DNA of 64,000 nucleotides, taken from positions 7,773 through 71,772 of the forward strand of contig JAQTQJ010000008.1 in NCBI GenBank assembly GCA_028712255.1. The letters are read 5' to 3'. Origin of the DNA: Candidatus Omnitrophota bacterium. Its GTDB lineage: Bacteria > Omnitrophota > Gorgyraeia > Gygaellales > Profunditerraquicolaceae. This document shows positions 18,891 to 44,953 of the stretch, one piece after another. Positions within the stretch are counted from its first letter, which is position 1. Each line of letters opens with the position of its first letter. The position numbers and the translations under genes are program-made. The notes beneath the pieces were generated by a model. That model saw only the letters and a program-made list of their open reading frames with translations. It made no database searches and had not been told where the DNA came from.

Positions 18891-18981
18891 CGTCATTCTG
18901 AGGGAGCGAAGCGACCGAAGAATCTAGATCCTTCGCCCGGAGCCTGCACTGAGCGAAGCGAATGTGGGCTCAGGATGACGG
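18891..18981. repeat. GC-rich ~90-bp MITE-like element, family ii copy A (CGTCATTCTGAG ... CTCAGGATGACG terminal IR; inner GAAGAATCTAGATCCTTC palindrome)
   Basis: seen in sequence between leuC and leuD; three further copies at 30622, 38317, 42492. Confidence 0.8.
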
Positions 18982-18997
18982 AACCAAAAGGTAAAAA

Positions 18998-19486
18998 ATG
19001 ATTATTAAAGGTAAAGTCCATAAATTTAGTGATGATATTAATACTGATGATATCATTGCAGCTAAATACCTGGTTTCTACTGACGCGCAGGAATTAGGTA
19101 AGCATTGTATGGAAACCATTAGCCCTGAATTTTCTCAAAAGGTAAGTCCTGGTGACATAATTATTGCCGGAAATAACTTCGGTTGCGGTTCAAGCCGGGA
19201 ACACGCGCCTTTGGCAATTAAAGGGTGCGGAGTTTCCGCGGTGATTGCTAAGAGTTTTGCGGCCATATTTTTCAGAAACGCCATTAATATCGGCCTGCCT
19301 TTTCTGGAATCTGCAGATGTCGATAAGATTAACGACGGTGATGTAATTGAAATAGATTTATCTACGGGTATAATTAATAATATAACACAGGATAAAAACT
19401 ATAAGACGCAGGCCTTCCCGGATTTCTTGCAACAGATTGTCGCCAGTGGCGGCTTAATTAATTATATTAAAAAACATAAGCAATAA
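18998..19486 (+). CDS. leuD: 3-isopropylmalate dehydratase small subunit
   Basis: 162 aa; aconitase swivel domain, GCGSSREHA motif. Confidence 0.85.
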   Translation: MIIKGKVHKFSDDINTDDIIAAKYLVSTDAQELGKHCMETISPEFSQKVSPGDIIIAGNNFGCGSSREHAPLAIKGCGVSAVIAKSFAAIFFRNAINIGLPFLESADVDKINDGDVIEIDLSTGIINNITQDKNYKTQAFPDFLQQIVASGGLINYIKKHKQ

Positions 19487-19530
19487 GCCGTAAGCTTATA
19501 GCTTAAAACTTAGAGCTTAAGGCTTATGCG
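19484..19530. repeat. TAAGCT-heptad imperfect hairpin (family iii)
   Basis: gccgtaagcttatagcttaaaacttagagcttaaggcttatgcgg between leuD and leuB. Confidence 0.55.
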
Positions 19531-19563
19531 GATTTAGAGTTTAAATAGACAGGGAGATAGAAA

Positions 19564-20613
19564 ATGTATAAGATAGCAGTAATACCAGGTGATGGGACGG
19601 GGCCAGAAGTAGTTTCTGAAGGGCTAAAAGTCTTGCAAGCGGCTTCTAAAAAGTTTAATTTTAAGTATGAGACAAAGTCTTTTGATTTTAGCGGGCAAAG
19701 GTACTTAAAAACGGGAAAACTGGTTGATGACAGCGATATTGAAGAATTAAAAAAATACAACGCAATCTATCTTGGCGCGGTGGGCGACCCGAATGTAAAA
19801 CCCGGTATTATTGAGACGGGTGTGTTGCTTAAGTTAAGGTTTGCTCTTGATCAATATATCAACCTGCGTCCGGTCAAGCTCTATAATTCCGCCTATTGTC
19901 CTCTTAAGGATAAGAAGCCGGAGGATATTGATTTTGTAGTTGTGCGCGAGAATTCTGAAGGCCTCTATAAAGGCATGGGGGAGTTTCAGGACAAAGGAAC
20001 TGCTGATGAAGTGGCTATTCAGATTTCTTACAATACTCGCAAAGGTGTTGAGCGATGTATCCGCTATGCTTTTGAATATACGCGTAAGCGTAATAAAAGA
20101 AAAAAACTCACCCTCTGCGGTAAAACCAATGTTTTGACCTATGCCTGGGATCTCTGGCAGCGAATATTCAATGAAGTAGCTAAAGAATATCCTGATGTAA
20201 CTACTGATTATGCCCATGTTGATGCAACGACGATGTGGTTTGTGAAGAATCCTGAATGGTTTGATGTGATTGTTACGGATAATATGTTCGGTGATATTAT
20301 TACGGATTTAGGGGCAATGATTCAGGGTGGAATGGGAATTGCTGCCGGAGGCAATATTAATCCGCAGGGGGTTTCTATGTTTGAACCAATCGGCGGAAGC
20401 GCTCCGAAATATACAGGTCAAAATGTAATTAATCCTTTAGCTGCGATTTGTGCTGTAGGTATGATGCTTGAGAATTTAGGTGAAGATAAAGCGGGCAAAG
20501 CAATTGAGAATACGGTAATTAACTTGGTGGGACATGATTTAAAATCATTAGCCGCAGGGAAAATGGGATATTCTACTACTGAGGTTGGAGATTTAGTAGT
20601 AAAAAAATTATAA
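19564..20613 (+). CDS. leuB: 3-isopropylmalate dehydrogenase
   Basis: 349 aa; isocitrate/isopropylmalate DH family, [11 protein letters not shown]-terminus, NMFGDIITD motif; leu cluster context. Confidence 0.85.
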
Positions 20614-20627
20614 GGGTTGTAAATAAA

Positions 20628-20680
20628 GGGGACGGTTCTATTTTTTACTATTTTTTAAATATAAAAATAGAACCGTCCCC
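20628..20680. repeat. AT-rich palindrome family i copy
   Basis: GGGGACGGTTCTATTTTTT..AAAATAGAACCGTCCCC after leuB. Confidence 0.85.
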
Positions 20681-20702
20681 TAGTTTCAAAAGGAGAATCT
20701 CG

Positions 20703-21728
20703 ATGAAAAAATATAATGTTGTGGTAATCGGAGCAGGGGTAGTCGGGATTGAGATACTGCGGGTCCTAAAGCAGCGTAATTTTCCTATTGATACTTTAAA
20801 GGTTTTTGCCCGTTCCGCTCGCGATATTAATGTTGATGGAGTTGTTTATTCAGTTGAGTCGATTACTCCTGATGGTTTTAACGGGATAGATATTGCCTTA
20901 TTTGCAGGAACAGAAGGAGAGAAGGGCGCTGCGGTTACTTATGCGGCGGAAGCGGTAAAAAGAGGCGCCGTGGTTATTGATAATGGGGCGGATTTTCGTA
21001 TGGACCCTAAAGTGCCTCTAGTTGTTCCGGAGGTTAATGCTGCCGATGTTAAAAAACATAAAGGAATTATTGCTAATCCTAATTGTTCGACAATTCAAAT
21101 GGTGGTAGCTCTAAATCCTATTCATAAAAAAGTAGGGATTAAAAAAATTATTGTTACTACCTTGCAGGCTTCAAGCGGAGCCGGTAAAGGAGCGGTTGAA
21201 CAATTAAATGAAGAGACGAATTTAATTGTTCAGGGTGGCTGTGAGAATATTAACGTTCAGGCGCAAAAGAAAGCTATGCCACAACAGTTAGCGTACAATT
21301 GTTTTCCGCATATCGGTAGTTTTGTGGAAGGCGATTATACTAATGAAGAGTGGAAATTGATTAATGAAACACATAAGATTATGCATGCGCCAAAGATTAA
21401 GATTTCCGCAACCACGGTACGGGTTGCGGTTAGAACCGGGCATTCAGAATCTGTATACATTGAAACTGCTAAGCCTATAACCCCTGAGCAGGCTAAAAAA
21501 ATCCTTGCCCGTTCCCCGGGAGTTGTGGTTATGGATGATCCTAAGAATCATTTATATCCCATGCCTAAGGATGTCGAGGGAAAGGATGAAACATTTGTCG
21601 GGCGTATTCGCCAGGATGTCTTTAATAAAAAAGGTTTATGGCTGTGGGTAGTGGCGGATAATCTACGTAAAGGCGCTGCCACAAATGCTGTCCAAATTGC
21701 CGAATGCATAATTTCAAGCTCCAAATAG
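20703..21728 (+). CDS. asd: aspartate-semialdehyde dehydrogenase
   Basis: 341 aa; NPNCSTI active-site Cys region. Confidence 0.9.
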   Translation: MKKYNVVVIGAGVVGIEILRVLKQRNFPIDTLKVFARSARDINVDGVVYSVESITPDGFNGIDIALFAGTEGEKGAAVTYAAEAVKRGAVVIDNGADFRMDPKVPLVVPEVNAADVKKHKGIIANPNCSTIQMVVALNPIHKKVGIKKIIVTTLQASSGAGKGAVEQLNEETNLIVQGGCENINVQAQKKAMPQQLAYNCFPHIGSFVEGDYTNEEWKLINETHKIMHAPKIKISATTVRVAVRTGHSESVYIETAKPITPEQAKKILARSPGVVVMDDPKNHLYPMPKDVEGKDETFVGRIRQDVFNKKGLWLWVVADNLRKGAATNAVQIAECIISSSK

Positions 21729-22459
21729 AGTATGACGGCAGCCGTTATTACGGATGGCAGGAGCAGAATGGAAAGAACGCCAGTTACCAGGTAAACAAGA
21801 CTATTCAATATTCCCTAGAGAAAGTCCTCAAGCAAATCCTCCAGGAAGATGTTAAGCTTATTGTTGCTGGCCGTACAGATTCAGGCGTGCATGCGCTTGC
21901 TCAAGTAGCAAATTTTAAAAGTTCAACTAAAATGCCTCTTGATAGATTGCGCTGGGCTCTAAATTGCCTTCTACCTGAAGATATAAAGGTAACGCGGATT
22001 CAGTATGTAGACTTGGATTTCAACAGCCGATTTTGCGCTAAATCTAAAATTTACCGTTATACGGTTTTAAATCGGAAATATTCTTCACCTCTTTCGGCAG
22101 GAAAGGTATATTTTTTCCATTATCCTCTGGATGTGAGATTGATGCGTAGCGAAGCAAATGTTCTTCTTGGTAGGCATAATTTTAAATCTTTTCAGGCAAC
22201 TGAATTAAGACAGAGAAACCCTATACGCACAATTAAGAGTATCAAGATTGCTAAAGATAAGGATTTTTTATATATTGATATTGAGGCAGATAGTTTTTTG
22301 TATAATATGGTTAGAAACATTGCAGGTACTCTGCTAGAGATAGGTAGAGGGCGGTTCTCTGAAGGGAGTATGAGTAAAATATTGAAATCACGTAAACGTA
22401 GTTGTGCTGGGCCAACATTGCCGGCAAAGGGATTGTGTTTAGTTAGAGTAAAATATTAA
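21704..22459 (+). CDS. truA: tRNA pseudouridine(38-40) synthase TruA
   Basis: 251 aa; LQIEYDGSRYYGWQ and GRTDSGVHA catalytic Asp motif; overlaps asd end by 25 nt. Confidence 0.88.
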   Translation: MHNFKLQIEYDGSRYYGWQEQNGKNASYQVNKTIQYSLEKVLKQILQEDVKLIVAGRTDSGVHALAQVANFKSSTKMPLDRLRWALNCLLPEDIKVTRIQYVDLDFNSRFCAKSKIYRYTVLNRKYSSPLSAGKVYFFHYPLDVRLMRSEANVLLGRHNFKSFQATELRQRNPIRTIKSIKIAKDKDFLYIDIEADSFLYNMVRNIAGTLLEIGRGRFSEGSMSKILKSRKRSCAGPTLPAKGLCLVRVKY

Positions 22460-22506
22460 TAAAAATTATTTGACTTTATTTATTATTCTGCTATAATCAT
22501 TTTTCT

Positions 22507-22944
22507 ATGAAAAAGACATATATTGCTAAACCAGAAGACATTAAAATGAAGTGGTATATTGCCGATGCCAAGGGCCAGACGCTTGGAAGATTAGCAGCCA
22601 GGATTGCCACTATCTTAAGAGGTAAGCACAAGCCGATTTTTACTCCTCATTTAGATACCGGTGATGGTGTGATTGTGATTAATGCTGCTTTGATTAAGGT
22701 GACCGGACGTAAACTTAAACAGAAAGTTTACCGTAGGTACTCAGGTTACCCCGGCGGCCAGCGTGAAGTAACATTAGAGGTGCTTTTAGCTAAGAAACCT
22801 ACCACAGTTATGCATTTAGCTGTTGAGAGGATGCTTCCCCATGGACCATTGGGAAGGGACTTGATTAAAAAATTAAGAGTTTTTGCTGATGATAAACATA
22901 ATTTAACAGGCGTAAAACCGGTTGTTTTGGAGGCTAAAAAATAA
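22507..22944 (+). CDS. rplM: 50S ribosomal protein L13
   Basis: 145 aa; KTYIAKPED..KWYIADA N-terminus. Confidence 0.92.
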   Translation: MKKTYIAKPEDIKMKWYIADAKGQTLGRLAARIATILRGKHKPIFTPHLDTGDGVIVINAALIKVTGRKLKQKVYRRYSGYPGGQREVTLEVLLAKKPTTVMHLAVERMLPHGPLGRDLIKKLRVFADDKHNLTGVKPVVLEAKK

Positions 22945-23340
22945 ATGAGTGATTCTGTTAAATATATTGCTTTAGGTAGGCGTAAGGAATCAACTGCCAG
23001 AGTACGTATGGAGCCAGGAACAGGCTTGATTACGGTTAATGGCAGGTCTTTTGAGAAATATTTCTTACGTGAGACAGATAGGATTATTGTCTTGCAACCT
23101 TTGGCACTTACTGAGACTAAGGCTAAATTTGATGTTGCAGCTAGGCTTAGTGGAGGCGGAATGACCGGCCAAGCAGGTGCTTTACGCTTAGGTATTGCCC
23201 GAGCGCTTTTAAATGCAGATGAAAGTTTTAAGGCTATTTTTCGCAAAAACGGATATTTAACACGCGATCCGCGCATGAAGGAACGCAAGAAATACGGACA
23301 GAAAGGCGCACGTAAACGCTTCCAGTGGACAAAGAGATAA
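22945..23340 (+). CDS. rpsI: 30S ribosomal protein S9
   Basis: 131 aa; [12 protein letters not shown] start and [16 protein letters not shown] end. Confidence 0.92.
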
Positions 23341-23380
23341 ATGCAGATTTAAGACTAAGATTTAAGAACTAACAAAAAAG

Positions 23381-23409
23381 ATCCCGCTGATGAAGCGGGA
23401 TTTTTTTTG
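23381..23409 (+). terminator. rho-independent terminator ATCCCGCtgatgaaGCGGGAT + T8
   Basis: seen after rpsI stop. Confidence 0.75.
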
Positions 23410-23442
23410 TTTTTTTGTTTTCGAAACAGTTTTCAATAAAAA

Positions 23443-23886
23443 GTGACAGCTTTAAATCAATCAGCTATTGGAACATTGGTCGAACGTAAAACGCGCTTAA
23501 CCCTATTGGTTAAGCTAATTAAAAAAGATGCCCTTACCGTGCGAGAAGCTTTTAGCGCAAAATTTAACAATCTACCTAAACATCTTAAGAAATCGCTGAC
23601 GTATGACCAGGGCCAAGAAATGGCAGAGCATCAACAATTTACCCAAGAAACAAGCATATTAGTTTATTTTGCTCATCCTCACTCTCCTTGGGAGCGAGGA
23701 ACCAGCGAAAATACAAACATGTTAGTTCGAGACTTTTTTCCCAAAGGGACGGATTTTTCAAAGATCTCAGAAAACAAGCTTCAAGAAGTTCAAAATATGC
23801 TTAATGACAGGCCTCGAAAAGTTTTAGACTGGTATACACCAAATGAGGCCTTTAGTAAATCTGTTGCGCTAGAAACTAGAATGTAA
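23443..23886 (+). pseudogene. IS30-family transposase, C-terminal fragment only (truncated remnant)
   Basis: 147 aa matching the IS30 DDE integrase core from TLVERKTR.. through HSPWERGTSENTNMLVRDFFPKGTDFS..LNDRPRKVLDWYTP; N-terminal HTH and first catalytic Asp region absent; GTG start. Confidence 0.7.
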
Positions 23887-24004
23887 GCAGTCACCTTTAT
23901 TCGGGCTGAATTTTACGTTCCGTCGAGAAAAAACCTTGACGGGAGTTTGATTTTATTCTAATATAATAGAAAATAAGCCTATTGCTGGTACTTATGGAGA
24001 TAAA

Positions 24005-25039
24005 ATGGTTATTAATGTTGGAATAATCGGAGCAACCGGGCATACCGGAGAAATTTTAATTGAACTTTTACTTTGCCACCCCAATGTTAGGATTACACAT
24101 CTTTACAATAGTGGGAAAAACGGCCAAAGTGTTTGTATTATTTCCGATGTTTTTCCGAAATTTAAGAAGAGGTTAGATTTGGTTTGTGGCAAGCCGGATT
24201 TTAATCAGATAAAAAATGATTGCGATCTGGTCTTTTTGGCTCTGCCGCATACAGTATCTATGAAATTTGCGCCTAAACTATTGAAGCTGGGCAAGAAAGT
24301 TATCGACTTAAGTGCTGATTATAGAATAAAGAATCCGTCGGTATATGAGAAAGCTTATAAAGTAACGCATCTGGATAAGGCTAATCTCAAAGAAGCAATT
24401 TATGGTCTGCCTGAATTAAACCGGGCTAAGATTAAAACTGCTAGGCTCTTGGCAAATCCGGGATGTTATCCAACTTCTGCAATCCTTGGGCTTGCTCCAT
24501 TATTGGCAGTATGCTTCGTGGATACAGATTCAATTATTATTGATGCTAAGTCCGGAGTAAGCGGTGCAGGAAAAAAGGTAGAAAAAGAATATTTATTTTC
24601 CGAGATTCAGGGAGATTTTCGGGCCTATAAAGTTAATGTGCATCAGCATTCACCAGAAATAAACCAGAGCCTTTCTAAGATATCCGGAAAAAAGATCGAA
24701 GCGGTATTTGTGCCGCATTTATTGCCTATTGAGCGGGGAATTCTTTCAACGATTTACCTTAAGAAAGTTCAGGGTGCTAAGCTTAAGGTAAAGAATATAG
24801 TAGAATTATATAAGAAATTTTATAAGAATGAACCTTTTATTCGCATCAAGCCGGATGGTGTTTTTCCTAGAATCAAGGACGTGGTAAAGACCAATTTCTG
24901 TGATATTGGGGTAAAAGATTTTGGCTCAACCATCATTGTTATTTGTGCTATCGACAATTTATTAAAAGGCGCATCAGCTCAGGCTGTACAAAATATGAAT
25001 ATCATGTATAAGCTGCCAGAAACAGCAGGATTATTATGA
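24005..25039 (+). CDS. argC: N-acetyl-gamma-glutamyl-phosphate reductase
   Basis: 344 aa; IIGATGHTGEIL Rossmann, NPGCYPTS active-site Cys. Confidence 0.9.
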   Translation: MVINVGIIGATGHTGEILIELLLCHPNVRITHLYNSGKNGQSVCIISDVFPKFKKRLDLVCGKPDFNQIKNDCDLVFLALPHTVSMKFAPKLLKLGKKVIDLSADYRIKNPSVYEKAYKVTHLDKANLKEAIYGLPELNRAKIKTARLLANPGCYPTSAILGLAPLLAVCFVDTDSIIIDAKSGVSGAGKKVEKEYLFSEIQGDFRAYKVNVHQHSPEINQSLSKISGKKIEAVFVPHLLPIERGILSTIYLKKVQGAKLKVKNIVELYKKFYKNEPFIRIKPDGVFPRIKDVVKTNFCDIGVKDFGSTIIVICAIDNLLKGASAQAVQNMNIMYKLPETAGLL

Positions 25040-28409: not shown

Positions 28410-29339
28410 ATGAAAAAAGACCTGCTTTCAATCAGAGATTTAACGGGCGAGCAGATTGATTCTATTTTTAAACTTTCCAGCCTGCTTAAAAAGAATAAGA
28501 AGAAATTTAGTAAGGTTTTATTTGGTAAAACCTTAGTTTTGATTTTTCAGAAACCATCTAATAGGACAAGAGTTTCTTTTGAAGTGGGTATGTATCAGTT
28601 GGGAGGAAATTCCTTATACTTGTCGCCAAGTGAAATTAATATCGGAGTAAGAGAAAGTGTAAAGGATGTTGCTAAAACCATCTCTCGCTATGTCAATGGG
28701 ATTGTTCTAAGAACTTTTGAGCACAAAAATTGTTTAGATATGGCGCTTGCGGCGACGGTTCCGGTTATAAATGGGTTATCGGATTTCTCTCATCCATGTC
28801 AGGGTTTGGCCGACGTTTTTACGATCAAGGAAAAATTAAAAAGCTTAAAAAATATTACTTTAGCTTATATTGGCGATGGTAATAATGTTTGTAACTCTTT
28901 GCTTTTTGCAGCCAGTAAATGCGGGATGAATATTACAATTGGTGCGCCAAATGGCTATTTTCCAAGTGAGCAGGTAGTTGAGTGTTCAAAGGAGATTGCG
29001 CAGGAGACAGGCAGTAAAATAAAGGTTACGCAGGATCCGGTTGAGGCGGTAAAAGGTGCGCAAGTTGTTTATACCGATGTTTGGGCCAGTATGGGGCAGG
29101 AGGAAGAGGTTGCCAAAAGAAAAATTATCTTTAAGGATTTTCAAATTAATGCTAAACTTTTATCCTTTGCTGCGCCGGGAGCTTTAGTGATGCATTGTTT
29201 ACCTGCGCATAGAGGCGAAGAGATAACTGATGAGGTTATGGATAGTAAGAATTCGATTGTCTTTGATCAGGCTGAAAATAGAATGCACGTACAGAAGGCA
29301 ATATTAATTAAGCTTTTAAAAGGAGCTAAATCTAAATAA
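28410..29339 (+). CDS. argF: ornithine carbamoyltransferase
   Basis: 309 aa; SNRTRVSFE carbamoyl-P motif, HCLP ornithine motif. Confidence 0.9.
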   Translation: MKKDLLSIRDLTGEQIDSIFKLSSLLKKNKKKFSKVLFGKTLVLIFQKPSNRTRVSFEVGMYQLGGNSLYLSPSEINIGVRESVKDVAKTISRYVNGIVLRTFEHKNCLDMALAATVPVINGLSDFSHPCQGLADVFTIKEKLKSLKNITLAYIGDGNNVCNSLLFAASKCGMNITIGAPNGYFPSEQVVECSKEIAQETGSKIKVTQDPVEAVKGAQVVYTDVWASMGQEEEVAKRKIIFKDFQINAKLLSFAAPGALVMHCLPAHRGEEITDEVMDSKNSIVFDQAENRMHVQKAILIKLLKGAKSK

Positions 29340-29340
29340 G

Positions 29341-29400
29341 ACTTAAGCCGTAAGCTATAAGCCGTAAGTTTTAAGCTTATAACTTACAGCTTACAACTTA
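29341..29400. repeat. TAAGCT-heptad imperfect hairpin (family iii)
   Basis: taagccgtaagctataagccgtaag tttt aagcttataacttacagcttacaactta between argF and argG. Confidence 0.6.
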
Positions 29401-30621: not shown

Positions 30622-30703
30622 CGTCATCCTGAGCCCGGAGGGCGAAGGATCTAGATTCTTCGTCACCCGCCACTGAATCAATGGCGGGTTCCTCAGAATG
30701 ACG
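30622..30703. repeat. GC-rich MITE-like element family ii copy B (inverted relative to copy A)
   Basis: CGTCATCCTGAG..GAAGGATCTAGATTCTTC..CCCGCCActgaatcaaTGGCGGG..CTCAGAATGACG between argG and argH. Confidence 0.8.
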
Positions 30704-30737: not shown

Positions 30738-32123
30738 ATGTCCAAGAAACTTTGGGGAACAAGGTTTGGCAAGAAAACCAACATACTTACTGATAAGTTT
30801 ACTTCATCGATAGCATTTGATAAAAGATTAGCCAAGTATGATATCTTAGGCAGTATTGCCCATGCCAAAATGCTGGGTAAGCAAAAAATTATTCCCCTAA
30901 AAGATAGTCAGCAGATTGTTAGGGGCCTGAATGTGTTACTTAAAGACGTAATCAGCGGTAAATTTAAATTTGATCCAGATGCCGAGGATATTCATTCGAA
31001 TATTCAGGAGTTATTAGTTAAGAAAGTTGGTGATTCGGCGCATAAATTACATACTGCCCGTTCTCGCAATGACCAGATTGCTCTGGATATAAAGATGTAT
31101 TTAAAAAGCGAAGTTGATGATCTGGTTGAGTATATTAGGGAGTTGCAGAAATCCATATTGAAACTTGCTGAATCGAATTCGTTCGTGGTAATTCCCGGAT
31201 ATACGCATCTACAGGTTGCCCAGCCAGTATTATTGGGTCACCATTTATTATGCTATATCGAAGGGCTAGAAAGAGATAAAGACAGGATTTTGGATGCTAA
31301 GAAAAGAATAGATGTAATGCCTTTGGGAGCTTGTGCGTTTTCCGGAACAGGCTTGCCTATTGACCGGGAGTTTGTTAGAAAAGAACTTGGGTTTAGTACT
31401 ATAACTGCCAATAGTATTGATAGCGTTAGCGACAGGGATTTTATCCTTGAGGTGCTTGCCCAACTTACGATACTTTCTGTTCATTTATCACGCATTGCCG
31501 AGGATTTGATACTCTGGAGTACGAAAGAATTTAATTTTATCGATATCGATTTTTCTTTCTGTACTGGATCCAGTATCATGCCGCATAAAAAGAATCCGGA
31601 TATTCTGGAGCTAATCCGGGGCTCGGTCGGTAAAATTCACGGAGATCTTTCCAGTGTCATGATTTTGATGAAGGGGCTGCCTTCATCTTATAACCGGGAT
31701 TTACAGATGGATAAACCTCCGCTTTTTGATGCTGTGGATACGGTTAAAGATATCTTAGAGATTCTTGCAGTGCTTTTCCAAAATATTGTAATCGAGAAAG
31801 AGGCGATTGCTTGCAAGGTGCAGGATGAATCTTTATTTTCCGTTGATATCGTCGAATACCTGATTGCTAAGGGTATCTCCTATAGAAAATCGCATGATAT
31901 CGTTGGGCTAATGGTTAGGGATTGCCTGGATAAAGGCAAAAAAATATCAAGTTTATCTAATAGTGAATTGAAGAAATATTCAGAAAAGTTAGCTCCTGAT
32001 GTCAGAAATATCCTGAATGCCTGGGATTCGGTAAACCGAAAAACTTCCTTTGGTAGTACGAATCCTAAGTTGGTAGCTAAGCAGTTATATAAATGGGAAA
32101 AAGAATTTACCAAGAATAGATAA
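30738..32123 (+). CDS. argH: argininosuccinate lyase
   Basis: 461 aa; fumarate-lyase signature GSSIMPHKKNPD. Confidence 0.92.
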   Translation: MSKKLWGTRFGKKTNILTDKFTSSIAFDKRLAKYDILGSIAHAKMLGKQKIIPLKDSQQIVRGLNVLLKDVISGKFKFDPDAEDIHSNIQELLVKKVGDSAHKLHTARSRNDQIALDIKMYLKSEVDDLVEYIRELQKSILKLAESNSFVVIPGYTHLQVAQPVLLGHHLLCYIEGLERDKDRILDAKKRIDVMPLGACAFSGTGLPIDREFVRKELGFSTITANSIDSVSDRDFILEVLAQLTILSVHLSRIAEDLILWSTKEFNFIDIDFSFCTGSSIMPHKKNPDILELIRGSVGKIHGDLSSVMILMKGLPSSYNRDLQMDKPPLFDAVDTVKDILEILAVLFQNIVIEKEAIACKVQDESLFSVDIVEYLIAKGISYRKSHDIVGLMVRDCLDKGKKISSLSNSELKKYSEKLAPDVRNILNAWDSVNRKTSFGSTNPKLVAKQLYKWEKEFTKNR

Positions 32124-35838: not shown

Positions 35839-35882
35839 GGGACCGTTTCTATTTTTTAAATTTAAAAAATAGAAACGGTCCC
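35839..35882. repeat. AT-rich palindrome family i copy, followed by tandem CGGGATTTC x2
   Basis: seen after dapB. Confidence 0.85.
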
Positions 35883-37479: not shown

Positions 37480-38360
37480 GGGTTATAACTGATCCGCAGA
37501 AATTAAATAATGAAATTAAGAAAACCAAGCGTAGCGGTAGGACAGTTGGTTTTGTTCCCACAATGGGGGCTTTACATCTTGGGCATTTAAGCCTTATTAA
37601 ACAGGCAGCCAAGGATAATGATTTTATTATAGTGAGTATATTTGTTAATCCTACTCAATTTGGTCCGAATGAGGATTTAAAAAAATATCCTCATCCACTT
37701 AAGAATGACCTTCAATTATGTTCTAAGGCAGGAGTGAATTTAGTTTTTCTGCCGAATGCTAAAATTATGTATCCAGAAGGTTTTTCTACTTTTGTTAATG
37801 TCGAGGGATTAAGCAGTGTTCTTTGTGGAGCATCTAGGCCCGGGCATTTTCGAGGGGTTACCACCGTTGTAGCTAAGTTGCTCAATATTGTTGAGCCAGA
37901 CCTGCTTTACCTGGGGCAGAAAGACGCCCAGCAGGCAGCTATTATCGGCAGAATGGTTAAAGATTTAAACTTTCCAGTTAAGGTAAAAGTTATGCCTATT
38001 GTGCGCGAGCCTGATGGCTTAGCGGTCAGTTCTCGCAATCACTATTTAAGTAAAGATCAAAGAATATACGCCAAAGTTTTATTTAAGTCTTTATCCTTGG
38101 CAAAGTCTTTAATTGATAATGGCCAGCGTGATTGCGTAAGGTTAGTCAGTAGGATGAGGCAGCTTATTGACAAGAAGAAACAGGTAAAAATTGATTATAT
38201 TGCGATAGTTGATCCAATAAATCTTAAACCGCTTAAGCGAATTTTCGGGAATTGTTTAGTTGTTTTAGCCGTATATATAGGCAAGACAAGGTTGATAGAT
38301 AATCTAGTCATTCTGAGGGAGTCCGCCACTAAACCAATGGCGGACGCCCGAAGAATCTAG
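37476..38360 (+). CDS. panC: pantoate-beta-alanine ligase
   Basis: 294 aa; PTMGALHLGHLSL HIGH-type motif; conserved GKTRLIDN near C-terminus, last ~14 codons and stop are provided by repeat element copy C. Confidence 0.88.
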   Translation: MRVITDPQKLNNEIKKTKRSGRTVGFVPTMGALHLGHLSLIKQAAKDNDFIIVSIFVNPTQFGPNEDLKKYPHPLKNDLQLCSKAGVNLVFLPNAKIMYPEGFSTFVNVEGLSSVLCGASRPGHFRGVTTVVAKLLNIVEPDLLYLGQKDAQQAAIIGRMVKDLNFPVKVKVMPIVREPDGLAVSSRNHYLSKDQRIYAKVLFKSLSLAKSLIDNGQRDCVRLVSRMRQLIDKKKQVKIDYIAIVDPINLKPLKRIFGNCLVVLAVYIGKTRLIDNLVILRESATKPMADARRI

Positions 38361-38401
38361 AAACCAGATCCTTCGTCCACCTGCGGCGGACTCAGGATGA
38401 C
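38317..38401. repeat. GC-rich MITE-like element family ii copy C
   Basis: GTCATTCTGAG..TCCGCCActaaaccaaTGGCGGA..GAAGAATCTagaaaccAGATCCTTC..CTCAGGATGAC; overlaps panC 3' end. Confidence 0.8.
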
Positions 38402-38410: not shown

Positions 38411-39229
38411 ATGAAAAAATTAAAAATCGGTATTGTAGGATGCGGAGCAATCGGCAGCTCTTTGGCAAAAGAGGTAGTTATTAATTTGCGCAGCTGTGCT
38501 TATTTAGCAGCTATTTATGATATAAAGCCTGAAAAGGCCCAGGTTCTTTCTAGGAAATTGGTAAAAAATGCTAAATTGTGCGTTTCCAATCTTGATACCC
38601 TTATTAAAAAATCGGATTTGGTGATTGAGGCTTCTAGTGCAAAGGCATCTTGGGAGATAGCGCGTAAATCTTTACTAAACGGATGTAAAGTCATGATTAT
38701 GAGTGTAGGAGGCGTAGTTGAGCATTCAGATGAATTGTTTGCTTTAGCCCGAAAATATGAAACTCAGGTATATTTTCCCAGTGGAGCCATCTCTGGTGTC
38801 GATGCTTTAAAGGCTGCTAATATTGCAGGAGTAAAAAGTGTTGTTTTGACTACACGTAAACATCCCGATGCATTTAAGGGAGTAGAATATGTCACAAATA
38901 ATTTTAAACTTTTGGGCCTAAAAAAAGATAAGGTTCTATTTTCAGGAACTGCAGCGCAGGCAGTGAAATATTTTCCGCAAAATATTAATGTTGCCGCGGT
39001 TTTAGGTTTAGCTGCTATCGGCATGCGCAAAACGAAGGTACGTATAATTGCCAGCCCCTTTGTTAGAAGGAATATTCATGAAGTTTTAATTGAATCTAAG
39101 GCTGCAAAGATTTTTACGCGTACCGAGAATGTTTTGCATCCGCAGAATCCCAAGACTTCTTATTTAGCGGTATTATCGGCTATCGCGGCTTTAAGACAAA
39201 TTTTACAACCGGTGAAGATAGGCACTTAA
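38411..39229 (+). CDS. L-aspartate dehydrogenase-like protein (NadX/DUF108 family)
   Basis: 272 aa; MKKLKIGIVGCGAIGS Rossmann start and overall Asp-DH pattern. Confidence 0.7.
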   Translation: MKKLKIGIVGCGAIGSSLAKEVVINLRSCAYLAAIYDIKPEKAQVLSRKLVKNAKLCVSNLDTLIKKSDLVIEASSAKASWEIARKSLLNGCKVMIMSVGGVVEHSDELFALARKYETQVYFPSGAISGVDALKAANIAGVKSVVLTTRKHPDAFKGVEYVTNNFKLLGLKKDKVLFSGTAAQAVKYFPQNINVAAVLGLAAIGMRKTKVRIIASPFVRRNIHEVLIESKAAKIFTRTENVLHPQNPKTSYLAVLSAIAALRQILQPVKIGT

Positions 39230-39236
39230 AAAACAA

Positions 39237-39290: not shown

Positions 39291-39324
39291 TAGATTTTCA
39301 CATAGAAAGGGGGTGAGTACAAAG

Positions 39325-39564
39325 ATGGCAGAAAAAGTCGTTAAAGTAGGGGTTAAGAGGGAAAAAGGTTATCTCTATTATATTGACAAGCAGGGTGATG
39401 TTTCTTGCGCCAAGATGAAAAGGGGTACTAAAAAAGGCGGTAGCCCTAAGAAGGTAACCAAGTGTGGTATTAAAAGAAAAGTAGGTTACCTTTATTTCTT
39501 GGACAAGCAGGGTGATGTTTCTTGCGCCAAGATGAAAAGAGGCGGGAAGAAGAAAAAGAAGTAA
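39325..39564 (+). CDS. small basic protein with internal tandem repeat (2 x KxGYLY(Y/F)xDKQGDVSCAKMKRG) and poly-Lys tail, hypothetical
   Basis: 79 aa from ATG after GGGGGTGA RBS; 27-aa unit duplicated at DNA level; flanked on both sides by family i palindromes. Confidence 0.55.
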   Translation: MAEKVVKVGVKREKGYLYYIDKQGDVSCAKMKRGTKKGGSPKKVTKCGIKRKVGYLYFLDKQGDVSCAKMKRGGKKKKK

Positions 39565-39580
39565 TTTATTAGTAAAAAAT

Positions 39581-39633
39581 GGGGACGGTTTTGTTTTTTT
39601 ACTGTTTAAGTTTAAAAAAACAGAACCGTCCCC
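39581..39633. repeat. AT-rich palindrome family i copy (GGGGACGGTTTTGTTTTTTT..AAAAAAACAGAACCGTCCCC variant)
   Basis: seen upstream of uvrA. Confidence 0.8.
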
Positions 39634-39650
39634 TAGATTTTTAATTTCCT

Positions 39651-42446
39651 ATGGAAAACAAATTTATAATTATCCGCGGGGCAAAAGAGCATAATTTAAA
39701 AAATATCAACTTAGAGCTGCCGCGTAATAAACTGATTGTTATAACCGGTTTATCCGGTTCAGGAAAATCAAGCCTTGCTTTTGATACAATTTATGCCGAA
39801 GGCCAGCGCCGGTTTGTAGAAAGCCTCTCTAGTTATGCACGCCAATTCTTAGAGCAATTGCAGAAACCGGATGTAGATTTTATTTCAGGATTGTCTCCTG
39901 CAATTGCTATTGAACAGCGCTCTGCTGGTGGTAATCCCCGCTCAACCGTTGCTACCCAAACTGAGATCTATGATTATTTAAGGTTATTATTTGCAAGGAT
40001 TGGTAAAGTTCATTGCTATAAGTGCGGTGCTTTAATTCAGAGCCAAAGCGCCCAGGAGATAGTTGAAGCAGTTATGAACTTACTGTTGAATTGCGATATC
40101 CAAATTCTTGCACCTTTAATTCAAGGGAAAAAAGGCCAATACAAAGATATCTTTTTACAGATTCAAAAGTCCGGATTTATGCGGGCAAGAGTGGATGGTA
40201 AAATTTACGAAGTCAGCGACAAGATTAAATTAGCTAAATATAAAATTCATAGTATTGAAGTAGTGGTGGATCGTTTAAATATTAAAAACGATGTCCGTAG
40301 AAGGCTCACGGATTCTATTGAAACTGCTTTAAAGATTGGAAAAGGTACAGTTATCATTGTAAAGAATGCATCAAAAGATCTGGTCTTTAGTGAGCAATAT
40401 GCCTGCTTGAAATGCGGGATAAGCTATCCTGAAATTTCCCCTCGTAATTTTTCATTTAACTCTCCTTATGGAGCTTGTCCTGAATGTAATGGCCTTGGTA
40501 ATAAACTAAAATTTGATCCGGATTTAATCATTCCGGATAAAAAGAAGAGTATTAATGCAGGGGCTCTTGAACCATGGAAACGCGGAGGTAGAGGCTATAT
40601 CCTTTATTACCGTTGGCTTATTCGAGAATTAAGTGACCGTCTTAAGTTTGATTTGGATACTCCTTTTAATAAGTTGTCCAAGCATATTCAGAAAGTTGTC
40701 CTTTATGGAACGCAGGAAGTTATAGGTAGTAAGCCTTTTGAAGGAGTTATCCCGCATCTTGAAAGGTTATTTCATCAGACCGATAGCGATTATTTAAAAG
40801 AAGAAATTAGTAAATTTATGTCTACTCTGCCTTGTCCGGCGTGTAAAGGAGCAAGGCTTAAACCTGAGAGCTTAGCTGTATTGATTAACCAGAAAAATAT
40901 CTGGCAACTTAGCAAAATGCCCATAAAAGAGGCGATAAATTTCTTTTCTTCTCTTGAATTATCGGAAAAGGAAAAATTAGTAAGCTATCAGGCATTAAAG
41001 GAGATAACTCAAAAATTAAAATTCTGCGTAGATGTCGGTTTAGATTACTTGACTTTAGACCGTAAAAGTTCGACTTTATCCGGTGGAGAGGCTCAGAGGA
41101 TTCGCTTGGCTACCCAGGTAGGCAGCGGTTTGGTCGGGGTTTTGTATGTTTTGGATGAACCTAGTATTGGTTTGCACCAGCGAGATAATGAAAAACTACT
41201 TTCAACCTTAAAAGCATTACGGGATTTGGGAAATACCCTGGTGGTTGTTGAGCATGACCAAGCCACAATCCTTACTGCAGACCATATTGTGGATCTGGGG
41301 CCTGGCGCAGGAAGGCATGGGGGAAAGGTTATTTTTTCCGGTAATAGGGAAGAGCTTCTAAAAGATAAGGAATCTTTGACTGCGAAATATTTACGTAGAG
41401 AACTTTTAATTCAGACGCCTCTAGAAAGGCGGAATTGGCGTAAATGTAAATATATTGAAATAAAGGGAGCAGCTGAGCATAATCTTAAAAATATTGATTT
41501 ACGTTTTCCTTTGGGTACCTTTATTTGTGTAACCGGAGTATCGGGTTCGGGTAAATCTACATTAATTAGCGATATACTTTATCCGGCATTGGCGCAAAGG
41601 ATCTATAGATCGAAGGATAAGCCAGGTTTATTTAAATCCATAAGCGGTATCCAGCAGATCGATCAGGTAATTGTAGTCGATCAATCGCCTATTGGTAGGA
41701 CACCACGGTCAAACCCGGTTACTTACACCGGAGTTTTTAGCCATATAAGAGACTTATTTGCTCAGCTTCCGGAAGCCAAAATACGCGGGTATAAACCCGG
41801 AAGATTTTCATTTAACGTTAAAGGAGGCCGCTGTGAAGCTTGCGCTGGTGACGGCATAAAGAAAATTGAGATGCATTTTCTTCCCGATGTGTATGTTAAA
41901 TGTGATTTGTGTAAAGGGTTAAGATTTAATAATGCCACTTTAGAAGTAAAATACAAAGGCAGATCTATCGCAGATTGTTTGGAGATGACCGTAGAGGATG
42001 CTCTGGAATTGTTTGCCAATATCCCTAAGATAAAAAATACCCTGGGGTATTTATCCGATGTTGGTTTAGGTTATCTACAGTTAGGCCAAAGCGCTACTAC
42101 TTTATCCGGAGGGGAAGCCCAGAGGATTAAGCTTTCTTCACAACTGTCAAAGCGTTCAACGGGCAAGACGCTCTACCTTTTAGATGAGCCTACTACCGGA
42201 TTACATTTTGCGGATGTGGCCAGGTTAATATCGGTTTTAGAGAGATTGGTTGAACGTGGTAATACAGTGATTGTAGTTGAGCATAATTTAGAGGTAATTA
42301 AATGTGCAGATTTTATTATTGACCTTGGCCCTGAAGGCGGAGATAGGGGAGGAGAGGTCGTTGCCGCTTGTAGCCCGGGAGAACTTGTGGAAATAGAGAA
42401 TTCATATACCGCTAAATTCCTTAAAGAAGTTTTAATGAATAAATGA
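39651..42446 (+). CDS. uvrA: excinuclease ABC subunit A
   Basis: 931 aa; two ABC modules (GLSGSGKSS, GVSGSGKST Walker A; LSGGEAQR signatures), zinc-finger Cys clusters. Confidence 0.93.
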   Translation: MENKFIIIRGAKEHNLKNINLELPRNKLIVITGLSGSGKSSLAFDTIYAEGQRRFVESLSSYARQFLEQLQKPDVDFISGLSPAIAIEQRSAGGNPRSTVATQTEIYDYLRLLFARIGKVHCYKCGALIQSQSAQEIVEAVMNLLLNCDIQILAPLIQGKKGQYKDIFLQIQKSGFMRARVDGKIYEVSDKIKLAKYKIHSIEVVVDRLNIKNDVRRRLTDSIETALKIGKGTVIIVKNASKDLVFSEQYACLKCGISYPEISPRNFSFNSPYGACPECNGLGNKLKFDPDLIIPDKKKSINAGALEPWKRGGRGYILYYRWLIRELSDRLKFDLDTPFNKLSKHIQKVVLYGTQEVIGSKPFEGVIPHLERLFHQTDSDYLKEEISKFMSTLPCPACKGARLKPESLAVLINQKNIWQLSKMPIKEAINFFSSLELSEKEKLVSYQALKEITQKLKFCVDVGLDYLTLDRKSSTLSGGEAQRIRLATQVGSGLVGVLYVLDEPSIGLHQRDNEKLLSTLKALRDLGNTLVVVEHDQATILTADHIVDLGPGAGRHGGKVIFSGNREELLKDKESLTAKYLRRELLIQTPLERRNWRKCKYIEIKGAAEHNLKNIDLRFPLGTFICVTGVSGSGKSTLISDILYPALAQRIYRSKDKPGLFKSISGIQQIDQVIVVDQSPIGRTPRSNPVTYTGVFSHIRDLFAQLPEAKIRGYKPGRFSFNVKGGRCEACAGDGIKKIEMHFLPDVYVKCDLCKGLRFNNATLEVKYKGRSIADCLEMTVEDALELFANIPKIKNTLGYLSDVGLGYLQLGQSATTLSGGEAQRIKLSSQLSKRSTGKTLYLLDEPTTGLHFADVARLISVLERLVERGNTVIVVEHNLEVIKCADFIIDLGPEGGDRGGEVVAACSPGELVEIENSYTAKFLKEVLMNK

Positions 42447-44953
42447 AGAAAATAATTGTAAAGTGTCAGTTATTAGGAAAATTTTTCAATTTGTCATTCC
42501 TGCCCTCGATTAACACATTCGAGGGTAGGCTCCAGCGGGAATCTATAAAGAGATCCCCGATAAAGGCACTCGGGGATGACGGCGCATCCCCGTTCACTGG
42601 CTGGTTGCGAATAATTATTTATCTATTTATTTTTATTTTGTTTTTTAACGCCGTCAGCTTTGCTTATGAGGGCTCCAAGGAAACTGAATTGCTTTTTATG
42701 GCAAAAAAAGCTTATGAAGATGGGTTTTATGAAGTGAGCCTCGGTATGCTGGAAAGATTTCGGAATGATTTTAGTGGTTCAACTCAATTAAAACAGGCTC
42801 GCCTTTTAAGCGGACAATGTTATTTTCAGCAGGGCAGATATTTGGAGGCATTGAATATTTTTGAAGAATTACTCAATGATCCACAATGCGCCTCTTTTAA
42901 GGATGCTATTTATTTTTGGATGGCGGAGGTGCATTTTAAAGGCAATAATTTTGATAATGCTGCCTTGCTTTATCATAAACTAATAAATGAGTTTCCTCTT
43001 TCATCGTATACGGCTTCAGCCTACTATTCATTAGGTTGGTCGCTTTCCCAAACGGGAAAATATGACCAGGCACTGCAGGTTTTTATGAGTTTACTAGAGA
43101 AATTTCCAACTGAGCCACAGAGTAAAGATGCTGCTTTTAAATTAATTGAGTGTTTGTATAACCTTAAAAAATATGCAGAATTAGAGAATAAGGTGAAGTC
43201 TGTCCTTAGGCTTTACAATAATGATAGATTGCGGCTGCCCTACCTATATTTTTATTTGGCAGAGTCGCAATTTTACTTGGATAATTTCAATGAAGCAGTT
43301 AAGAACTACCTTAAATCAGTGCAGGCTTTTAAAGAGCAGAAGGCGCAGGTATTGGCAAAGTTAGGGCTTGGTTGGTCGTATCTTAAGCTTGCTAAATATA
43401 AAGAAGCCGAAGAGGTATTTGGGGATATTAAATATGGTAGTCTGGATAAAAAAAGCCTTGATATTTTTATATTGGGCCAGGCAGTATTAATGAATCAGAC
43501 TAATCGCGTTTATGAGGCTAAGAAACTTTATGAACAGCTTATTAATATAAGCAGCGATCCTTTGATGTGTATGCAGGCTTATTTAGGTAAAGCGGATGCG
43601 CTCTATAACCTAGCGGAATATAATCATGCCGCGGATGTTTATAAAGAAGGATTGGATAAGATTGACAGCTCTGTGGTGCCAGATGAGTTAACGAGTAGAT
43701 TGCGGTATAATTTAGCTTTAGCTTATATAAAAGGAGGGCAGTTTTCTTCAGGTATAGGCATATTTGATGATCTTATGGAAAAAAGTAAAGACCAGGCTGT
43801 TAATATCAAGATGCTTTTTCAGGTGGGCGACGCTTATAAGGATGAGGGTGAATTAGTAAAAGCCGAAGAAACCTATACGAAGATTCTAAAAAAATACCCT
43901 ACTGTAGCTTATGCAGATTATGCGCAATATCAAATTGGAGCTTTAAAGTTAAAAAGAGGCGATTATGATGGAGCAGTTATGATTTTTGAGTCCTTTTTAA
44001 AAAATTATCCTCAATCGAATTTTCTGGCGGATACGTTTTATTCGTTAGGTACAGCTTATTTTCAAAAAGCAGATTACAAAAATAGTCTCGAAATCTTTTC
44101 TAAGTTTCAGGGACAGTTCAAAGACAACGCTTTAGCCTCCCAAGCCTTATATATGCTTGGAAATTCGCTCCTTAATTTAGGAAAAATCAATGAGGCGCTT
44201 TCTATTTTTAAAGATACACTTAAGTTAGCTTCGCAGGATATTGAATTACGCCAGAAGGCTGAATATGAAATTGCCGATTGTTATTATAAGCTAGGGCAGG
44301 TAAATGAAGCCCTCAAGAGTTTTAAACTTTTACGTACTAAGTATCCGGATTCAAAACTTCTTCCTGATATTATGTGGTGGCTTGGCCAGTATTATTATCG
44401 TTGTGGTGATTTAGTTCTTGCGCAGAGATACTTCAATTCTTTAATAAAAGATTTTTCAGATAGCCGACTAGTTGCGGATGTGTTTTATGCTATGGGCCTG
44501 ATTTTTACTGCTGAGAATAAATTTGAACAGGCAGCTGAAAGTTTTAAAAAAGTACTTGAATTAGGTAGCGTTGATTTGAGAGCTCAAGCTCAAGTAGCAT
44601 TAGCAAAGGCATATTATAAGCTCCAGGATTATGAAAAAGCAAAGCTATATTACAGTAAAAGCCTTGAGGAGACAGATGTTTTGGATGCAGCTGATATTCA
44701 CTTTAATTTAGCTGAAGTATTTGAAAGTAATTTAGAGTTTGATGCGGCTATCCAGCAATATATCCTGGCTGCTGATTTAGACAAACAAGATATGCATTCA
44801 TCTGTATTGGCACTTTTGCGCGCAGCTAAACTTTATGAAGATAAAGAGGATTTTAAAGAGGCATTGAAGATATACAAAAGAGTCATTCAGAAGAATACGG
44901 AAGAAGCAAAATTTGCTCAGGAGAGGATTGATTGGATAAATTCAAATCAGTAG
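42443..44953 (+). CDS. large secreted TPR-repeat protein (836 aa)
   Basis: signal-peptide-like IIIYLFIFILFFNAVSFA then >15 TPR-like repeats (AxxYxxLG, ALxxY patterns); annotated start lies inside repeat element copy D so true start uncertain. Confidence 0.7.
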   Translation: MKKIIVKCQLLGKFFNLSFLPSINTFEGRLQRESIKRSPIKALGDDGASPFTGWLRIIIYLFIFILFFNAVSFAYEGSKETELLFMAKKAYEDGFYEVSLGMLERFRNDFSGSTQLKQARLLSGQCYFQQGRYLEALNIFEELLNDPQCASFKDAIYFWMAEVHFKGNNFDNAALLYHKLINEFPLSSYTASAYYSLGWSLSQTGKYDQALQVFMSLLEKFPTEPQSKDAAFKLIECLYNLKKYAELENKVKSVLRLYNNDRLRLPYLYFYLAESQFYLDNFNEAVKNYLKSVQAFKEQKAQVLAKLGLGWSYLKLAKYKEAEEVFGDIKYGSLDKKSLDIFILGQAVLMNQTNRVYEAKKLYEQLINISSDPLMCMQAYLGKADALYNLAEYNHAADVYKEGLDKIDSSVVPDELTSRLRYNLALAYIKGGQFSSGIGIFDDLMEKSKDQAVNIKMLFQVGDAYKDEGELVKAEETYTKILKKYPTVAYADYAQYQIGALKLKRGDYDGAVMIFESFLKNYPQSNFLADTFYSLGTAYFQKADYKNSLEIFSKFQGQFKDNALASQALYMLGNSLLNLGKINEALSIFKDTLKLASQDIELRQKAEYEIADCYYKLGQVNEALKSFKLLRTKYPDSKLLPDIMWWLGQYYYRCGDLVLAQRYFNSLIKDFSDSRLVADVFYAMGLIFTAENKFEQAAESFKKVLELGSVDLRAQAQVALAKAYYKLQDYEKAKLYYSKSLEETDVLDAADIHFNLAEVFESNLEFDAAIQQYILAADLDKQDMHSSVLALLRAAKLYEDKEDFKEALKIYKRVIQKNTEEAKFAQERIDWINSNQ
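42492..42581. repeat. GC-rich MITE-like element family ii copy D (divergent)
   Basis: GTCATTCC..CCCTCGAttaacacatTCGAGGG..GGGAATCTataaagAGATCCCC..GGGGATGACG; overlaps 5' end of TPR gene. Confidence 0.65.

Follow-up and report, generated by a model that had tools for sequence, protein, structure and literature searches.

How do short, GC-rich sequences bounded by inverted repeats come to lie inside the operons of a low-GC bacterium, and what are they? The question is raised by a 64 kb stretch of DNA (the window) from a metagenome-assembled genome (MAG) of Candidatus Omnitrophota, which has a GC content of 38%, all its genes on the plus strand and a PanC protein identical to MDD5108844.1 (Candidatus Omnitrophota MAG). 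Four such sequences, here called c1 to c4, had been noticed in a reading made from the letters alone (the sequence-only reading) and described as elements resembling miniature inverted-repeat transposable elements (MITEs), perhaps encoding a small RNA. We consider it likely that they are head-to-head dimers of arms that resemble repetitive extragenic palindromes (REPs) and belong to the superfamily of CGTC-tagged REPs (NTS/SRM, 'Ssn-related motifs'). We describe here the hairpin anatomy of the elements, the association and co-variation of their arms with ssn, a gene for a GIY-YIG nuclease, and the insertion polymorphism between related genomes.

CGTC-tagged REPs were described by Di Nocera et al. 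2013 (PMC3733652). They have the tag CGTC or, often, TGTC (with CCTC as a variant) and a stem that starts with A-T pairs; head-to-head dimers predominate, and copies are found just past the 3' ends of open reading frames (ORFs) or in frame within genes, uvr genes included. The family takes in RPE-4/RPE-6 of Rickettsia and dRS3 of Neisseria and is said to have 'no dedicated transposase' (PMC3733652). Chenal et al. (Nat Commun 2025; PMC11893778) described the NTS of Neisseria (CGTCATTCCCGCGMAVGCGGGAATCYRG) together with SsnA, a 94-aa single-domain GIY-YIG nuclease whose published family corresponds to CDD cd10448 (~94 aa). SsnA binds the NTS only as single-stranded DNA (ssDNA) and cuts it a few nucleotides upstream; it does not bind the hairpin as RNA. 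Cleavage depends critically on the three bases (GTC) that precede the palindrome, and binding on the C that follows it. An NTS lies on either side of the gene (NTS-ssnA-NTS), and in N. meningitidis the system reduces the integration of transforming DNA that carries the NTS (PMC11893778).

All four elements are non-coding insertions of 80-95 bp within operons, and they lie 9 to 46 nucleotides past the end of the upstream ORF or overlap with it. NCBIfam assignments of the neighbouring genes (leuC/leuD, argG/argH, panC/aspartate dehydrogenase and uvrA/TPR, the last a tetratricopeptide repeat gene) bear out the leuC/leuD and argG/argH sites of the sequence-only reading, and its description of short, inverted-repeat-bounded, non-coding sequences in both orientations, with a GC content well above that of the host, is borne out as well (58, 56, 57 and 52% for c1 to c4 versus 38% for the window). 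The motif GTCATYCTGAG, with at most one mismatch, has six matches in the window, compared to 0.85 expected; none of 100 shuffled sequences reached six, and the six matches are the two ends of c1, c2 and c3. What does not hold is that the four are copies of one sequence. The termini GTCATYCTGAG...CTCAGRATGAC are shared by c1, c2 and c3, the third of which starts at 38307 rather than at 38317 as given before. The fourth element (42493-42580) has only the GTCAT/ATGAC ends in common with the others: its interior differs and its arms, ATTCC..GGAAT and ATCCCCGA..TCGGGGAT, are of a different class. The GAAGAATCTAGATCCTTC core, said to be common to all, is whole in c1 and c2, split by 7 nucleotides in c3 and absent from c4, and the CCGCCA..TGGCGG hairpin is present in c2 and c3 only, with none in c1 or c4. 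The four elements are really two arm classes plus remnants of others, and two such remnants, a truncated arm (18865-18875) and a degenerate solo arm (13102-13126), had been missed.

Each element consists of two arms that face each other head-to-head, with the tags outward (Table 1). Applied to the 64 kb, a strict definition of an arm (an HGTCAY tag, a 6-bp stem or a 5-bp stem plus GA, then C) has eight matches, which are the arms of the four dimers, and no others. A loose definition (GTCAT plus any 5-bp complement) is not enriched in the window compared to shuffled sequences (17 observed, 14 expected); the stricter definition alone is specific. The tag is CGTC in five arms, TGTC in two and AGTC in one, while the AT...AT start of the stem, the GTC before the palindrome and the C directly after it are found in 8/8 arms. 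Beyond the window, among the matches listed, 78 of 104 elements from many phyla have T at position -1 and 19 have C. The arms of c1-c3, 29-53 nucleotides in length, are built of an outer stem of 5 bp that encloses GA/GA internal loops and nested hairpins, rather than of a stem of 8-9 bp with a loop of 4-5 nucleotides; the only 8-bp stem is that of the right arm of c4, with a loop of 9 nucleotides. Folded as ssDNA, the elements have z-scores of -4.3 and -5.6 (c2), -5.6 and -4.9 (c3) and about -3 (c4).

Table 1. Hairpin elements, their arms and the arm remnants of the window (positions in the window; nt, nucleotides)
Feature	Positions	Strand	Location	Structure
c1	18892-18979		between leuC and leuD	dimer, arms 2 nt apart
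c1, 5' arm	18892-18924	+		CGTC tag, ATTCT-GA-GG-GA-GCGAAGC-GA-CC-GA-AGAAT stem-loop, then C
c1, second arm	18927-18979	-		CGTC-ATCCT...AGGAT-C; head-to-head with first arm
c2	30623-30702		between argG and argH	opposite orientation to c1 and c3
c2, arm	30623-30651	+		CGTC-ATCCT-GA-GCCC-GGA-GGGC-GA-AGGAT-C
c2, arm	30654-30702	-		CGTC-ATTCT-GA...nested ACCCGCCA/TGGCGGGT hairpin...GA-AGAAT-C
c3	38307-38401		panC / aspartate dehydrogenase (nadX) junction	arms 9 nt apart
c3, 5' arm	38307-38357	+		AGTC-ATTCT-GA...nested TCCGCCA/TGGCGGA hairpin...GA-AGAAT-C
c3, second arm	38367-38401	-	aspartate dehydrogenase start codon at 38411	TGTC-ATCCT-GA...GA-AGGAT-C
c4	42493-42580		uvrA / TPR gene junction	different arm class
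c4, 5' arm	42493-42543	+		TGTC-ATTCC...nested CCCTCGA/TCGAGGG hairpin...GGAAT-C
c4, second arm	42552-42580	-		CGTC-ATCCCCGA-(9-nt loop)-TCGGGGAT-C
Truncated ATTGC-class arm	18865-18882	+		GTCATTGCGAGGAGTTAA; exact GTCATTGCGAG at 18865-18875
Degenerate solo arm	13102-13126	+	between ORFs 12107-13090 and 13144-14121	TGTCATCCCCGCGGAAGCGGAAATCT

What decides is where the compensating base changes lie. Elements with both termini in other genomes follow, among the matches listed, a common plan: an arm GTC-ATCCT-GA-GCGAAGC-GA-AGGAT-C comes first, a centre of variable sequence follows, and the reverse complement of that arm closes the element. As ATCCT pairs with AGGAT inside the arm, each arm is itself an imperfect palindrome. 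Among the matches listed, 23 have ATTCT as left terminus, and 22 of these have AGAAT as left inner block, with a right arm that still reads ATCCT/AGGAT; pairs within the arm are then Watson-Crick, while pairs between the arms are T.G or A.C mismatches. All three ATYCT-class copies of the window (c1-c3) have this arrangement of compensation within the arm. The same was seen over 734 GTCAT sites in the ssn loci L123-L202, where a stem start is followed by its own complement and C with a frequency of 0.86 for ATTGC, 0.81 for ATTCT, 0.51 for ATCCT and 0.36 for ATTCC, and by the complement of another class with a frequency of about 0.

ATTGC, the class of the truncated arm at 18865, is also the commonest arm class next to ssn genes. 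The sequence GTCATTGCGAG recurs exactly at 31063 (minus strand), within the conserved argH coding sequence; it has no matching half-stem there and was judged a chance match. The solo arm at 13102-13126 fails the strict arm test and is probably a relic, a decayed NTS-like hairpin.

The association with ssn is seen in a second Omnitrophota genome (locus L039, JAQTOZ010000110.1), which, according to the protein accessions, is from the same accession series as the window MAG and is a different genome. It has a 96-aa ORF with a Pfam GIY-YIG match (E = 3.8e-18, residues 5-77) that is bracketed by TGTCATTCTGAG...CGAAGAATCT and GATCCTTCG...CTCAGGATGACA (also written GTCATTCTGAG...CGAAGAATCT and GATCCTTCG...CTCAGGATGAC). 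The ssn gene occupies the place of the 2-9-nucleotide spacer of c1-c3, and the polarity of the T-type and C-type arms is the same. The arm-ssn-arm arrangement is also found in Hymenobacter (L036), and ATYCT-class arms are present on one or both sides of ssn in these two loci and in six metagenomic ones (L154, L170, L182, L183, L185 and L194). One homologue with 53% identity to the L039 protein (E = 8e-36) is flanked by arms that differ from the NTS consensus by one mismatch, and the solved structures nearest to the L039 protein are the UPF0213 proteins 1zg2 and 1ywl. Homologues of ssn are encoded in many Omnitrophota MAGs.

Metagenomes scanned with an alignment of homologues yielded 80 ssn loci, of which 72 had enough flanking sequence to be evaluated: GTCAT arms are present within 160 nucleotides on both sides of the gene in 46 of these 72 and on at least one side in 66. 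With a simple hairpin definition, 292 arms are found in 73 of the 80 loci. Arm class clusters on a neighbour-joining tree of the Ssn proteins, with ATYCT, ATGCT and ACCCT arms in one block that includes L039. Many of the ssn homologues in these loci (L123-L202) are on very short contigs (1-3 kb) with, on average, about four arms per locus, which suggests that hairpin repeats break metagenome assemblies.

Several observations weigh against placing the window elements in this system. The published SRM pattern, HGTCWYN(0-2)YYVSBRHN(0-5)WNVSBRGN(0-2)RNCYNB, has no match on either strand of the window, and in the 80 ssn loci it matches only four arms, in three loci; as the published definition is not matched, membership rests on architecture and gene association. 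No ssn homologue was found in the 64-kb window by tblastn, and the arms of c1-c4 are candidate Ssn sites. As ssDNA, c1 folds no better than shuffled sequences (z = -1.0 and -0.6) with standard DNA parameters, which credit tandem G.A pairs little; d(GCGAAGC), present in the first arm of c1, is a notably stable DNA mini-hairpin. To our knowledge, a nuclease-only GIY-YIG protein has no known mechanism of insertion. Finally, empty and filled sites cannot be aligned base for base, so that the exact insertion points are undefined. Judged by sequence, the arm architecture of c1-c3 is outside the published SRM definition and inside the same system, and we regard the four elements as new examples of a system already described, CGTC-REP/SRM-Ssn, in which they represent a variant of the arm architecture.

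Comparison with related genomes bears on the history of the elements. In L121, with a PanC 77% identical to that of the window, c2, c3 and c4 are all absent from the syntenic loci. In L122 (PanC identity 83%), c3 and c4 have orthologous counterparts, which have diverged. L205 and L206 have no c1: leuC and leuD overlap by ATGA there (positions 2001-2004 in both L205 and L206), whereas the window has a 115-nucleotide spacer (18882-18998). The insertion polymorphism that the sequence-only reading had proposed to look for is therefore present, and because syntenic relatives are without the insertions, the elements appear to have been mobile. The ATGA overlap in the element-free relatives suggests translational coupling; in the window, leuD has a purine-rich AAAAGG upstream of its ATG that could serve as ribosome-binding site. 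In the c3 orthologue of L122 the right arm is degenerate. The L122 orthologue of the c4 left arm is plain and NTS-like, GTC-ATTCCCGC-GAAA-GCGGGAAT-C; it reads GTCATTCCCGCGAAAGCGGGAATC and encodes VIPAKAGI, a peptide that is listed for Rickettsia CGTC-1 (PMC3733652).

Three genes contain repeat-derived codons. The last 17 codons of panC (VILRESATKPMADARRI and the stop codon TAG at 38358-38360) derive from the left arm of c3. The PanC profile is complete by residue 279 (profile position 282 of 283), and PanC orthologues mostly have 279-282 aa, with the closest element-free one ending in RLIDNLIVK and the stop codon. The element has thus replaced about three native residues and the stop codon and has lengthened the protein: that the element provides the end of panC was correctly seen before, as borne out by the element-free orthologues, but not the number of codons (about 14) or the extent of the replacement. 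Other PanC orthologues have element-derived tails in a different frame (ICHSE...). Comparison of LeuC tails showed that the last five codons of leuC (VIARS) and its stop codon come from the truncated ATTGC-class arm at 18865, of which an orthologous remnant (18865-18882 in the window) is present in L204. The TPR gene (42443-44953) had been thought to receive its 5' end from c4; however, its ATG, which overlaps the uvrA stop codon, is native, and c4 with its flanks has been inserted in frame, after about codon 5, and accounts for 51 codons. The insertion falls between the n-region and the h-region of the signal peptide, and its counterpart in L122 has 41 codons.

The distribution of the elements was examined by a scan for the two termini in one genome per species. 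The pattern used ended in CTCARGATGAC, while the true complement is CTCAGRATGAC; dimers with two T-type arms were outside its sampling, and the taxon list is a lower bound rather than a census. At least 120 contigs from many phyla carry both termini. The matches listed include Bacteroidota, Acidobacteriota, Chloroflexota, Gemmatimonadota, Verrucomicrobiota, Planctomycetota, Proteobacteria, Firmicutes, Bifidobacterium, Synergistota, Nitrospirota, Patescibacteria and Omnitrophota. One arm sequence is found from the window, with its 38% GC, up to high-GC Bradyrhizobium and Acidobacteriota. The sequence-only reading had offered horizontal origin or structural constraint as reasons for the high GC content; as the arm sequence is common to low- and high-GC genomes, constraint is the better of the two, and the high GC content is that of a constrained arm sequence and not a sign of recent foreign origin. 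Four 16-mers of the elements occur in no paper of the literature text, where literal sequence matches are unrelated primers only.

In some of the matched genomes (L001, L016, L079, L089 and L095; Hymenobacter and others) a larger terminator-like palindrome has a dimer in its loop, as in gtaaaaagtacggct[element]agccgtactttttac; Di Nocera et al. 2013 likewise describe the insertion of REP dimers into palindromes (PMC3733652). On a Flavobacterium contig (L055), a Flavo-1 RNA (RF01705, 72 bits, 1822-1911) lies 64 nucleotides downstream of the element.

How the dimers may work can be proposed from the SsnA proteins of Neisseria, Wolbachia and relatives. Each arm would fold whenever the DNA is single-stranded, as in replication, in repair or when transforming DNA is taken up, and, going by the published work on SsnA, the cognate Ssn would bind the folded arm and nick that strand a few nucleotides 5' of the tag. 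If the published enzymology applies, a head-to-head dimer would offer one cuttable arm per strand, just outside each end of the element. More speculatively, the non-coding dimers could be internally deleted derivatives of arm-ssn-arm units (the arms of c1 and of c2 are 2 nucleotides apart) and could spread via an Ssn-dependent ssDNA route. They would land mostly at the 3' ends of genes and in the intergenic spacers of operons, and would persist where reading frames stay open, as in the tails of panC and leuC and in the signal peptide of the TPR protein.

A bolder version, which we put forward tentatively, is that arm-ssn-arm units are autonomous mobile elements that use a GIY-YIG ssDNA nuclease, with the window dimers as their miniature derivatives. 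It draws on the position of ssn at the central loop of the dimer with the same polarity of arms, and on the presence or absence of dimers at equal sites among relatives. The PanC tails in another frame could reflect repeated insertion at the 3' end of panC, and some Hymenobacter copies are in the loops of palindromes, as expected for insertion into ssDNA hairpins. If true, this would be a class of transposons mechanistically apart from the DDE, HUH, serine and tyrosine systems, present across most bacterial phyla and inserting in frame into essential genes. The resemblance of arm-ssn-arm to insertion sequences (IS) was raised by Chenal et al.; mobility was not demonstrated (PMC11893778).

Among the alternatives to a present-day Ssn substrate, the one that survives best, although we find it doubtful, is that the elements are fossils: descendants of Ssn-associated dimers in a lineage without the cognate nuclease, now slowly decaying as inert spacers and peptide tails. 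The lack of ssn in the window, the weak folding of c1, the truncated arm at 18865, the degenerate solo arm at 13102 and the degenerate right arm of the c3 orthologue in L122 are all consistent with decay, and c3 and c4 have been vertically inherited between lineages whose PanC proteins are only 83% identical. However, the tag, the AT-initiated stem and the 3' C are still in place in 8/8 arms, c2 and c3 fold at z < -4, and Ssn homologues occur in many Omnitrophota MAGs.

A function as RNA, either as cis-acting structure in polycistronic mRNA (stabiliser, processing site or translation uncoupler) or as the small RNA of the sequence-only reading, appears improbable to us. As parts of operons, on the sense strand, all four elements must be transcribed, c1 puts 115 nucleotides in place of the translational overlap of leuC and leuD, and Di Nocera et al. 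2013 argue that many REPs work as RNA (PMC3733652). On the other hand, neither the window nor 18 other element loci contain an Rfam match that reaches the gathering score (up to E = 10 only chance-level microRNAs and snoRNAs are returned), and no promoter-like or terminator-like site coincides with an element in a scan of the window. The orientation relative to transcription is mixed, as c2 is opposite to c1 and c3, and the near two-fold symmetry points to a constraint on the DNA itself. What is conserved is what recognition as ssDNA requires, and SsnA does not bind the RNA form (PMC11893778). A hammerhead-like CUGAGGA...GAA was considered and dropped: the elements are near-perfect palindromes, position 15.1 misfits the core and the Rfam hammerhead models are unmatched.

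The two transposase-based explanations are both very improbable. Classical MITEs, deletion derivatives of an IS with terminal inverted repeats that are moved in trans by a DDE transposase, would explain the inverted ends, the size of about 90 bp, the lack of coding capacity and the presence or absence among relatives, and are what the sequence-only reading had likened the elements to. However, no target-site duplication is found at the four window copies or in the 104 elements among the matches listed, where conservation of the flanks is limited to T/C at -1 and A/G at +1, both part of the tag, and the supposed terminal repeats are imperfect palindromes with compensation inside the arms and none between them. 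Longer arm pairs surround ordinary genes: the 1.9-2.0 kb intervals between paired arms in L056, L102 and L119 contain argH, lysA, ribosomal-protein and other ordinary genes and no parental DDE IS, and the gene found between arms encodes a GIY-YIG nuclease. The other explanation is mobilisation by a RAYT, a Y1 HUH transposase, which would make the elements REPINs. These likewise pair two REP hairpins in inverted orientation, with the option of folding into a single long hairpin, are vertically inherited and are intergenic (PMC3116915, PMC3733652), but their expected tag is GTAG instead of CGTC/TGTC, Di Nocera et al. 2013 report no tyrosine transposase flanked by CGTC repeats (PMC3733652), and the only gene that we find repeatedly framed by arms is GIY-YIG (no systematic search for RAYT genes was made).

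The window has further repeats. AT-rich long hairpins of the form GGGAC(C)GTT(T)CTATTTTT...AAAAATAGAAACGGTCCC are found at operon ends (2529, 8214, 17548, 20621, 35043, 35831, 39230 and 39574) and are probably bidirectional intrinsic terminators; the terminator scan picks one of them at 35839-35882. TAAGC arrays with units of about 7 nucleotides (CTTAAGC, CGTAAGC, TATAAGC) are present in the intergenic regions 15079-15151, 19454-19526 and 29328-29400 and are mutually inverted, and a 13-nucleotide unit (TACTCATGAATAA-like) is repeated in tandem about nine times in a very AT-rich stretch (62179-62295). An exact 300-nucleotide duplication (53280-53579 / 53739-54038, 459 nucleotides apart), with diverged copies of its start at 54189 and 54603, looks like tandem paralogous small genes, possibly pilin-like; in the syntenic loci, PilM/N/O-type genes are close by. 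Between the aspartate dehydrogenase gene and uvrA there is a 73-nucleotide direct repeat with 84% identity (39353-39425 / 39470-39542); the same spacer contains a 79-aa ORF in L121 and L122.

With the assignment to ssDNA hairpins of the Ssn/CGTC-REP system, the vague label of 'MITE or small RNA' gives way to a testable identity. The system is extended to Omnitrophota and to an arm architecture (5-bp stem, tandem G.A and nested hairpins) that the published pattern misses, and, because the SRM pattern misses this architecture, published counts of Ssn-associated repeats are probably too low. The arm classes ATTGC, ATYCT, ATGCT, ACCCT and ATTCC may furnish, with their nucleases, candidate pairs of enzyme and site for use as ssDNA tools. 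In annotation, the 51 residues inserted into the TPR signal peptide, like the C-terminal ends of PanC and LeuC, should be regarded as repeat-derived and non-native. The syntenic empty and filled sites provide material on whether a nuclease-only GIY-YIG protein drives the spread of repeats; interest would be high only if Ssn-driven mobility were demonstrated.

Of the known systems, MITEs such as Correia and RUP resemble the elements in size, inverted ends, insertion into operons and an occasional contribution to coding sequence, but have transposase-binding terminal repeats and target duplications, neither of which is found here. The REPIN-RAYT system (Bertels and Rainey 2011) also has doublets of inverted REP hairpins that are non-autonomous and long-lived, and its repeats flank a single-copy gene for an enzyme that acts on ssDNA; however, the tag is GTAG and the enzyme is a Y1 HUH transposase, while it is a GIY-YIG nuclease for the elements studied here. 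With the CGTC-tagged REPs, the elements share the CGTC/TGTC tag, A-T at stem positions 1 and 2, the mostly head-to-head dimers, the position just after the 3' ends of ORFs, the in-frame copies in genes, including uvr genes and N-termini, and the coexistence of several families within one genome. They differ in that published stems have 8-9 bp and loops of 4-5 nucleotides, whereas the window stems are interrupted and have longer interiors; moreover, PMC3733652 lists five phyla and our scan many more. In comparison with NTS/SRM-Ssn, the arms of c1-c3 stand apart by an outer stem of 5 bp that is followed by tandem G.A mismatches and nested hairpins, they do not match the SRM pattern, and the window arms occur as minimal head-to-head dimers, not in clusters, in an Omnitrophota host. 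What they have in common with this system is the 5' (C/T)GTC tag, the palindrome that starts with AT, the C directly after it, the arm-ssn-arm arrangement in relatives with a putative nuclease of ~94-97 aa that consists of a single GIY-YIG domain, and the co-variation of arm sequence with nuclease lineage. The L122 orthologue of c4, with its GTCATTCCCGCGAAAGCGGGAATC, fits the dRS3 palindrome ATTCCC-N8-GGGAAT and resembles the core of the NTS.

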